From: Escherichia coli
Lineage (GTDB): Bacteria > Pseudomonadota > Gammaproteobacteria > Enterobacterales > Enterobacteriaceae
Reading direction: 5' to 3' (one strand)
Length of the DNA: 64,000 nucleotides
NCBI RefSeq assembly: GCF_051903065.1
Contig: NZ_CP178438.1
The notes below the pieces were generated by a model. That model was given only the letters and a program-made list of their open reading frames with translations. It did no database searches and had not been told where the DNA came from. Below are positions 32,121 through 32,811 of this stretch, one piece after another. A program made the position numbers and the translations under genes. Position 1 is the first letter of the stretch, and each line of letters starts with the position of its first letter.

Positions 32121-32811
32121 AGAGTAAAACTCATTAGGATTATCAGAATTCGGCCAATGCATTGCAAAAATCAAATATAGAAAGAAGTGTGCAGGCACTT
32201 AGCCGCGAGGGGCATAGCGAAGCCATACAGAAAGCACTAGCATTCAGAACTCCTGTGAAAGCGGCATAGTGCCGCTGCTCAGGAGTTTTGTTATGACCCG
32301 TATCGTGCTGAGCGTTGCCACCCTATGATGCGATTAAAAAAACTCACCGTCGAGCCGATGATTGACGTCAATGCTATCGGATGATGCCGGGGGTGTTCCG
32401 GAAGGAATTCCTTGTTTCCCGAACTGTTACCAACAAAATTATAACGATGAGCAAGTAAAGACCGGTTGGTGGCAGTACTGACCGGTCTGTGATGGAAGAT
32501 TAATTTCACCTTAAATCCTGGTGCTGTTAGGATGCTGACATTTTTCGGGTACACCATTCAGATTATGCAAATAAAGATCCAATGAAAAAATAAATATCCC
32601 TGAATATAATATATTCATAGCACCCATAACTCATCCTGGGCGATAACTAAACCATTTTTGAGTAACAAATGAAACAACTGCAACGCTCTTATTATTTCTG
32701 GAAAACGTCTCGCAAAAACAAAACAACATGCAAAAATCCGCTTTCGTTAATTAATTTTCCGGCGTAATTTTCGCACATACATTAATGAGTAATATATGTA
32801 AGAGGGTGGCA

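Follow-up and report, generated by a model that had tools for sequence, protein, structure and literature searches.

What is the stretch of some 660 bp that separates an AT-rich open reading frame (ORF) of 604 codons from yiiE in a 64,000-nucleotide (nt) window of Escherichia coli DNA, and what are the two hairpins that it contains? In this window, to which all coordinates refer unless another locus is named, fabY (yiiD) ends at 29891, the 604-codon ORF, here called the island gene, occupies 30306-32120 and is followed by yiiE (start 32785 or 32812, end 33030), yiiF and fdhE. The segment in question, 32121-32784, lies within the fabY(yiiD)-yiiE interval of E. coli, which is hypervariable among strains. 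GC content is 0.47-0.53 in 32100-32500 and 0.33 in 32500-32800, and 0.32-0.40 across most of the island gene. A first-pass annotation, made from the letters alone, had described a nested hairpin, a second hairpin, a patch of ordinary GC content and ORFs of 11 and 19 codons, all of which are present after small coordinate adjustments, and had offered as explanations a terminator of the island gene, a scar of its acquisition, a degraded partner gene or an unannotated small RNA. Comparison with other genomes leads to the view that 32121-32784 is non-coding relic DNA plus the control region of yiiE, set in a hot spot of recombination that fabY and yiiE enclose. Taken together, with a probability of about 0.8, the relic is the scar of an eroded older gene array and the nested hairpin (hairpin 1) is the leader of a dead operon. 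What carries this reading are demonstrated homologies, deletions, a frameshift, conservation of structure and predicted pairing of a Shine-Dalgarno sequence.

Remnants of a dead operon

The segment can be divided into the following features, given with coordinates and strand.

32121-32186, plus strand: 3' flank specific to the island gene, seen only where the 604-codon gene is present
32187-32287, plus strand: repeat A, a single copy in the window and two copies of about 103 bp in strain SW4848 (locus L004)
32187-32210, plus strand: 3' end (8 codons) of an antitoxin gene of the NadS/HigA type (HTH_3), from alignment to the 3' ends of nadS in loci L002 and L004
32245-32290, plus strand: nested hairpin 1, with stem P1 (32245-32255 with 32280-32290) and stem P2 (32260-32266 with 32270-32276)
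32293-32342, plus strand: what is left of the 5' end of gene 1 (phrog_4499 family): the start codon and some 51 nt, 1 nt being lost after codon 3
32343-32344, no strand: junction of a 393-bp deletion that lost positions 6045-6437 of L004, with (G/A)CCGT microhomology at its ends
32344-32481, plus strand: 3' remnant of gene 2, about its last 109 nt
32459-32488, plus strand: hairpin 2, AGACCGGTTGGTGGCAGTACTGACCGGTCT, with a 13-bp stem, a 4-nt loop and no T-run, at the position of the gene 1-gene 2 terminator
32489-32784, plus strand: AT-rich upstream region of yiiE, kept in K-12-like genomes, with promoter-like sites

The fullest arrangement of the locus is found in SW4848, in which fabY is followed by the 604-codon gene, a first repeat A, an alpha/beta hydrolase gene on the minus strand, genes for a RelE-like toxin and the antitoxin NadS, a second repeat A, gene 1 with 70 amino acids (aa), gene 2 with 92 aa, and yiiE. 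Alignment of homologous loci, a check named in the first-pass annotation, yielded intact ORFs for both genes, in L004 and in a second E. coli locus, L008, and an intact pair is also present on a distant contig (L007). Window positions 32187-32342 match L004 5886-6044, where the intact gene 1 spans 5994-6206 and its product begins MTRNRAERRHH. The window copy retains about 17 homologous N-terminal codons and these are frameshifted, the core of the family, RRHH...CSCWMCG, being absent. The ORF of 11 codons (32293-32328, MTRIVLSVATL followed by a stop) is the product of this frameshift, and the ORF of 19 codons (32325-32384, MMRLKKLTVEPMIDVNAIG followed by a stop) is the continuation of the original frame. 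On this comparison gene 1 of the window is a pseudogene remnant.

The 393-bp deletion took away the larger part of gene 1 together with two thirds of gene 2, from its start on, and is common to L002-type and all window-type genomes examined. Beyond its junction, window positions 32344-32637 match L004 6438-6727 at 80%, and the frame of the gene 2 remnant reads through to the stop at 32479-32481, creating an ORF of 39 codons (32362-32481), in which GGVPEGIPCFPNCYQQNY aligns with GDDPEGIVWFPDCYPQIY (61% identity, E 6e-6). At its end stands hairpin 2, with a folding energy of -20.3 kcal/mol (z = -3.6, 0/200 shuffles as stable). A homologue of hairpin 2 lies just past the gene 2 stop in L004 and in LF82 (L005), and the window version is conserved in K-12-like genomes. 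At the same position L007, L012, L025 and L038 have a canonical stem with T-run, in L025 as the second hairpin, about 60 nt past the gene 2 stop. Hairpin 2 shares with intrinsic terminators this location, at which gene 2 homologues of other genera carry stem and T-run. The two inverted repeats are accordingly the 5' and the 3' end of a dead operon. The suggestion of a patchwork scar with degraded genes therefore holds. The degraded genes are not partners of the island gene, because both are intact in strains that lack it (L002, L005, L008).

Does the segment encode anything of its own, be it a small RNA or functional small proteins from its ORFs of 11, 19, 35 and 39 codons or from an ORF of 88 aa on the minus strand? 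Two stable stem-loops about 200 nt apart would be in keeping with this idea, as would the 97-99% conservation, among E. coli genomes including K-12, of the right-hand part from 32415 on. This part forms the yiiE upstream region. Against it, the Rfam covariance-model scan that had been recommended found no match inside 32121-32784 at E <= 10, no plus-strand promoter-like site that could drive transcription lies upstream of hairpin 1, none of the small ORFs has a Pfam hit, and fragments of gene 1 and gene 2 read out of frame account for those of 11, 19 and 39 codons. In L002 the minus-strand ORF is cut down to 60 aa, 32121-32414 is deleted in K-12-like genomes, and among strains insertions and deletions accumulate in the apical part of hairpin 1. 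A product encoded by the segment is on these grounds very improbable. The six annotated records fetched for the junction or the relic beside it, five of the window type (L001, L092-L095) and L002, which has the relic and lacks the island gene, have no feature annotated on the relic (6/6).

Gene 1 and gene 2 in other genomes

A profile search with gene 1 collected 885 clusters at 50% identity, mostly of proteins of 70-90 aa, with the conserved pattern RRHH..RLK..R..YW..G....TPCxCSCWMCG.xR...G...QE.R. The intact E. coli protein P0001 is 51% identical to the L007 product P0019 (alignment A1), the value being 58% to the query over the local BLASTP segment. All 40 members scanned match phrog_4499, a family of unknown function (P0001 at E 1.6e-13). 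None of the 40 matches Pfam, and phrog_4499 itself has neither a Pfam model nor a solved structure. The relic ORFs, gene 1, gene 2 and the 604-codon ORF were compared with Pfam, NCBIfam and PADLOC, and phrog_4499 for gene 1 remained the one family found. The predicted structure of gene 1 is helical (predicted local distance difference test, pLDDT, 79), finds no match in the PDB and resembles uncharacterised phage proteins only. Gene 1 homologues occur in 447 phage records, mostly T5-like. The intact E. coli gene 1 and its 40 aligned relatives thus agree with phrog_4499, from which the window copy differs in its loss of all but the frameshifted N-terminal codons. Many frameshifted gene 1 alleles are found within E. 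coli. Gene 2, of about 92 aa, follows gene 1 in 7 of 69 loci, a pairing seen in some Enterobacterales only.

The surroundings of gene 1 offered some further observations. A Nitrosomonadales metagenome-assembled genome has a Proteo-phage-1 RNA (Rfam RF03044) some 640 nt past the gene (L053 3140-3222), and in Mixta a sok antitoxin RNA precedes the gene by about 300 nt (L019 2049-2197); both suggest a mobile-element context. In Pseudocitrobacter vendiensis (L014, about 2897-3175) a yiiF-like ribbon-helix-helix gene stands directly after gene 1, and an association of gene 1 with yiiE/yiiF-type genes may predate E. coli.

A conserved leader hairpin upstream of gene 1

How does hairpin 1 relate to this operon? 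Its outer arms of 11 nt are 91% complementary, and the 81 nt around it fold with -34.6 kcal/mol, compared with -19.7 +/- 3.5 kcal/mol for 200 dinucleotide shuffles (z = -4.3, 0/200 as stable). The Shine-Dalgarno sequence of gene 1, AGGAG at 32281-32285, is part of the 3' arm (32280-32290) and precedes the ATG at 32293 by 7 nt; the hairpin is followed by TTGTT and this ATG. The same hairpin stands ahead of gene 1 in L002, L005 and L008, all of them without the island gene, as well as in Klebsiella spallanzanii and Pseudocitrobacter. The idea that hairpin 1 arose as a terminator of the island gene has to be given up, since it precedes gene 1 in strains without that gene and in other genera. The architecture also precedes intact gene 1 in L004, L007 and most of the loci L012-L089.

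For a wider comparison 80 loci from other species were fetched, and the statistics extend over 69 loci. Most beta- and gammaproteobacterial copies share an outer stem of the type YUCC.../...GGAG, an internal loop and a GC-rich apical stem, the sequence of which differs between clades. The apical GCGG..CCGC of the window hairpin can be aligned with other Enterobacterales copies except that of L038 (GGGG..CCCC). In 40 of 41 other loci, chosen by eye as carrying the hairpin, the 3' arm holds a Shine-Dalgarno sequence and a start codon lies 5-10 nt downstream. When the windows of each locus are ranked by stability, the 70 nt in front of gene 1 fall into the top 5% in 31/69 loci and into the top 1% in 21/69. 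In 18 betaproteobacterial leaders, aligned with MAFFT and not fitted to structure, 85.8% of cells are paired as opposed to 73.1 +/- 1.3 in shuffled alignments (0/500), slid controls reach at most 57%, and compensatory changes occur at 13 of 19 pairs (1/500 shuffles). In the Pantoea-type clade the apical stem covaries. Covariance-model scores amount to 35-87 bits on the sense strand and at most 26 bits on the antisense strand, and G.U pairs are frequent; this strand asymmetry together with the G.U pairs indicates an RNA of the sense strand. The predicted pairing probability of the Shine-Dalgarno sequence has a median of 0.95 for gene 1 as compared to 0.66 for 159 control ORFs of the same loci (Mann-Whitney p = 1.5e-10).

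The genes upstream of gene 1 are heterogeneous and include antitoxins, an integrase, a primase, methylases and housekeeping genes, and the hairpin therefore travels with gene 1. The Rfam scan at the gene 1 leaders of 20 related loci returned no family. Judged from position, pairing and conservation, hairpin 1 is thus best described as a relic translational-control leader of gene 1. In Salmonella phage SE11 (T5-like; L096, about 1150-1470) the gene 1 homologue is not annotated in full length, a coding sequence of 123 bp inside it being all that is given, and only a short UCUCC/GGAGA stem covers its Shine-Dalgarno sequence, the GC-rich apical stem being absent.

A possible terminator function of hairpin 1

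Alternatively, hairpin 1 could mainly be an intrinsic (Rho-independent) terminator, of the toxin-nadS operon elsewhere and of the 604-codon gene here. Its stem is strong and GC-rich with a low z-score, and AGGAG is followed by the tail TTTTGTTA, with 6 T among 8 positions. It lies 125 nt past the stop of the island gene and about 35 nt past the nadS stop in L002, L012 and L014, and on its 5' side an A-rich stretch, CAGAA, pairs with the T-run, an arrangement known from bidirectional terminators. A GC-rich stem downstream of a stop codon and followed by TTTTGTT is indeed what hairpin 1 has in common with intrinsic terminators. It differs from them in that the T-run overlaps the stem, where most of the T's reside: the minimum-energy fold pairs four of the U's and leaves UUAUG free. 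Nor is the U-tract conserved: of 40 homologous hairpins only 3 have five or more T among the 8 nt that follow the Shine-Dalgarno sequence, the mean being 2.0 T. Hairpin 2 differs by having no T-run, and the terminator scan reported neither of the two. In addition, the hairpin is kept next to upstream genes that are unrelated or lie on the other strand, and the conserved element of its 3' arm is the Shine-Dalgarno sequence 5-10 nt ahead of the gene 1 start codon. Termination as the principal function appears doubtful for these reasons. That hairpin 1 doubles as a terminator in the E. coli lineage, for the toxin-nadS operon or, in the window, for the 604-codon gene, is a tentative suggestion drawn from the same tail and rather less likely than not.

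A promoter inside hairpin 1, with late transcripts that start in the stem, was considered and rejected: TTCAGA-16-CATAGT agrees at 8 of 12 positions only, and the loop is not conserved across clades.

Strain arrangements and repeat A

Arrangements were compared among 5426 complete E. coli genomes. Pieces of 32121-32784 are present in 4841 of them, in several arrangements, and the window-type junction, in which the end of the 604-codon gene runs straight into one copy of repeat A and the sequence beyond that copy, occurs in 732. In cS108a (L002) and LF82 the hydrolase, toxin and NadS genes are present and the 604-codon gene is absent; L002 matches the window from 32187 on only. Window positions 29801-32287 match L004 1680-4169 at 96%. 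In K-12-like genomes 30370 is joined to 32415, a deletion of 2,044 bp (30371-32414) that leaves a 5' stub of the 604-codon gene, annotated as pseudogene, fused to the tail of the gene 2 remnant. The fabY-fdhE interval differs between E. coli strains in three further ways: L008 2281-4665 holds a highly repetitive ORF of 421 aa, with tandem repeats similar to repetitive extragenic palindromic (REP) elements, and ORFs of 175 and 178 aa; cS108a has an IS621 insertion beside yiiF (L002 4537-5517); and LF82 is without yiiF.

The two copies of repeat A in L004 (4067-4169 and 5884-5988) are direct repeats with 90.5% identity that flank the cassette of hydrolase, RelE-like toxin and NadS. Each comprises the 3' end of nadS and the leader hairpin. 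The left side of the single window copy is of the upstream type, and its right side runs on as the sequence 3' of nadS. In MFDS1019527, a second window-type strain, the switch between types is at a different point. This mosaic pattern fits homologous recombination between the repeats. The antitoxin remnant at its left end has lost its stop codon by a change of TAG to GAG (32208-32210; V-QALSRE in place of ...VLQALNR followed by the stop). Intact NadS of L002 matches HTH_3 (E 7.5e-10), and in the window the last 8 antitoxin codons alone are recognisable, no helix-turn-helix domain being present.

The following history would account for these arrangements, its order and direction being inferred, as are translational repression by the leader and any present-day role in termination. 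An older resident array would have contained the alpha/beta hydrolase, the RelE-like toxin and the NadS antitoxin, followed by an operon of leader hairpin, gene 1, gene 2 and terminator hairpin. First, the 393-bp deletion between short repeats would have joined the beginning of gene 1 to the last part of gene 2. Second, recombination between the direct repeats A of about 100 bp would have removed the hydrolase-toxin-antitoxin cassette and brought hairpin 1 to its place behind the island gene. Third, the 1-nt deletion would have put the remainder of gene 1 out of frame. Where the module is intact, hairpin 1 would most likely act at the level of RNA: its CUCC-containing upstream arm is predicted to pair with the Shine-Dalgarno sequence and, in many species, with the whole spacer to the AUG, and translation of gene 1 would have to wait for opening or cleavage of the stem. 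The window strain has nothing left to regulate, and the hairpin could at most serve the island-gene transcript as a terminator or 3'-stabilising stem.

It could also be imagined that the inverted repeats act as DNA, as ends of a mobile element, as a site-specific recombination site from insertion of the island, or as an attC-like cassette site. Hairpin 1 lies within the repeat at which the rearrangement took place, gene 1 and its hairpin are found in many unrelated neighbourhoods, and NCBI labels the C-terminal half of the island ORF 'transposase' (WP_226156879.1). The 604-aa protein, however, has no transposase or other domain and no match in Pfam, NCBIfam, PADLOC or PDB sequences, the G.U wobble pairs and the unequal covariance-model scores of the two strands speak for sense-strand RNA rather than DNA, and a repeat of 100 bp with 90% identity suits homologous recombination and not a target-site duplication. 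A matching inverted repeat was not noticed beside the fabY stop, at the island's left end, where no systematic search was made. An action as DNA is consequently very improbable. The more specific versions, an attC-like site or a transposon end, were rejected: core-site motifs and a linked recombinase are both lacking, and all inverted repeats that were found form local hairpins.

Several observations weigh against the reading of the segment as eroded array with a relic leader. The covariance model R1, built on the betaproteobacterial leaders, misses 32245-32295 even with filters off; R1 is specific to gene 1 leaders within its clade, and the gammaproteobacterial hairpins escape it as well, with or without filters. 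In a MAFFT alignment of all clades the outer stems do not fall into common columns, and no general model was built. Homology of the E. coli-clade hairpin accordingly rests on its position by gene 1, its architecture and the alignable apical stem. The 41 clear loci among the 69 were picked by eye, and about 20 of the more distant loci have no hairpin or a different one. The pairing test used the best of several candidate start codons of gene 1, which biases its result somewhat upward. The T-rich tail of E. coli, which is absent in 37 of the 40 homologues, makes a terminator role plausible in this lineage. Finally, the event at repeat A could have been a deletion from an SW4848-like array or, in the other direction, the assembly of that array by unequal exchange.

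The island gene and its 3' flank

Within the 66-bp 3' flank of the island gene a weak resemblance to nadS may start at about 32153. NCBI annotation of an identical genome splits the 604-codon ORF into an 'incomplete hypothetical protein' and the 'transposase', and in the window the ORF is intact. Given the missing matches to Pfam, NCBIfam, PADLOC and PDB, the transposase label looks unsupported and the protein looks like an orphan.

The yiiE upstream region

In the literature on the fabY-yiiE intergenic region nothing was found except a reported peak for the sigma-S holoenzyme, from systematic evolution of ligands by exponential enrichment (SELEX), upstream of yiiE in the yiiD-yiiE spacer of K-12 (PMC5493296). 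yiiE and yiiF are paralogous ribbon-helix-helix genes, and their upstream regions share a segment of 78-84 bp with about 77-79% identity (32673-32750 and 33111-33188), probably a duplicated promoter/operator region. The copy of yiiE contains an ORF of 32 codons (32669-32767). At 32569-32587 a polymorphic insertion/deletion of 19 bp lies between AAATAAA repeats and is absent in a K-12-like genome and in strain 4FM. Where it is missing, the best sigma-70-like match (32582-32610) loses its -35 hexamer, and this match is therefore probably not the yiiE promoter. Downstream of yiiF, at 33534-33570, a REP-like palindrome has a partial match to Rfam naRNA4 with 35 bits, below the gathering score.

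Implications

The history of the locus resembles that of decayed intergenic toxin-antitoxin (TA) loci of the HigBA/NadS type in E. coli, with which it shares an orphan 3' end of a helix-turn-helix antitoxin gene, a direct-repeat deletion, frameshifted and truncated ORFs and arrangements that differ from strain to strain. It differs from them in nothing essential and is a typical example except for the preserved structure of the relic leader. The locus is a clear case of how a hypervariable interval is remodelled, by repeat-mediated loss of a TA cassette, by a deletion at microhomology and, in K-12-like genomes, by a further deletion of 2 kb. The unannotated 660 bp are accounted for as pseudogene debris and yiiE control region and are not material for the mining of small RNAs or small proteins.

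Stem-loops that sequester a ribosome-binding site (RBS) are well known from early transcripts of T4 lysozyme (e) and I-TevI and from the leaders of type I toxins such as hok, tisB and zorO. Like these, the gene 1 leader has a stable hairpin with the Shine-Dalgarno sequence in its 3' arm and a small phage-associated gene a few nucleotides downstream, and the full-length leader is predicted to be translationally inert. It differs from them in having no sequence or Rfam relationship to them, and neither an antisense RNA nor an internal promoter or a processing site came to light. Unlike type I toxins, the gene 1 protein is basic and cysteine-rich and not hydrophobic, and in the window the regulated gene is dead. 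The conserved leader, absent from Rfam, is a modest new candidate for a cis-regulatory element in a well-known class. It may or may not be, in about equal measure, that hairpin 1 is the decayed copy of a widespread and undescribed cis-regulatory RNA motif that locks the RBS of phrog_4499 genes in Beta- and Gammaproteobacteria and in some phages, keeping them silent until a trigger arrives. The trigger that opens the stem could be, for example, the gene 1 protein, a factor from a phage, a helicase or cleavage by an RNase. The many frameshifted gene 1 alleles in E. coli would be in keeping with a product that does harm on expression. The leader, found in about 40 of 69 loci, provides a testable handle on the regulation, and perhaps on the function, of a common phage protein family.

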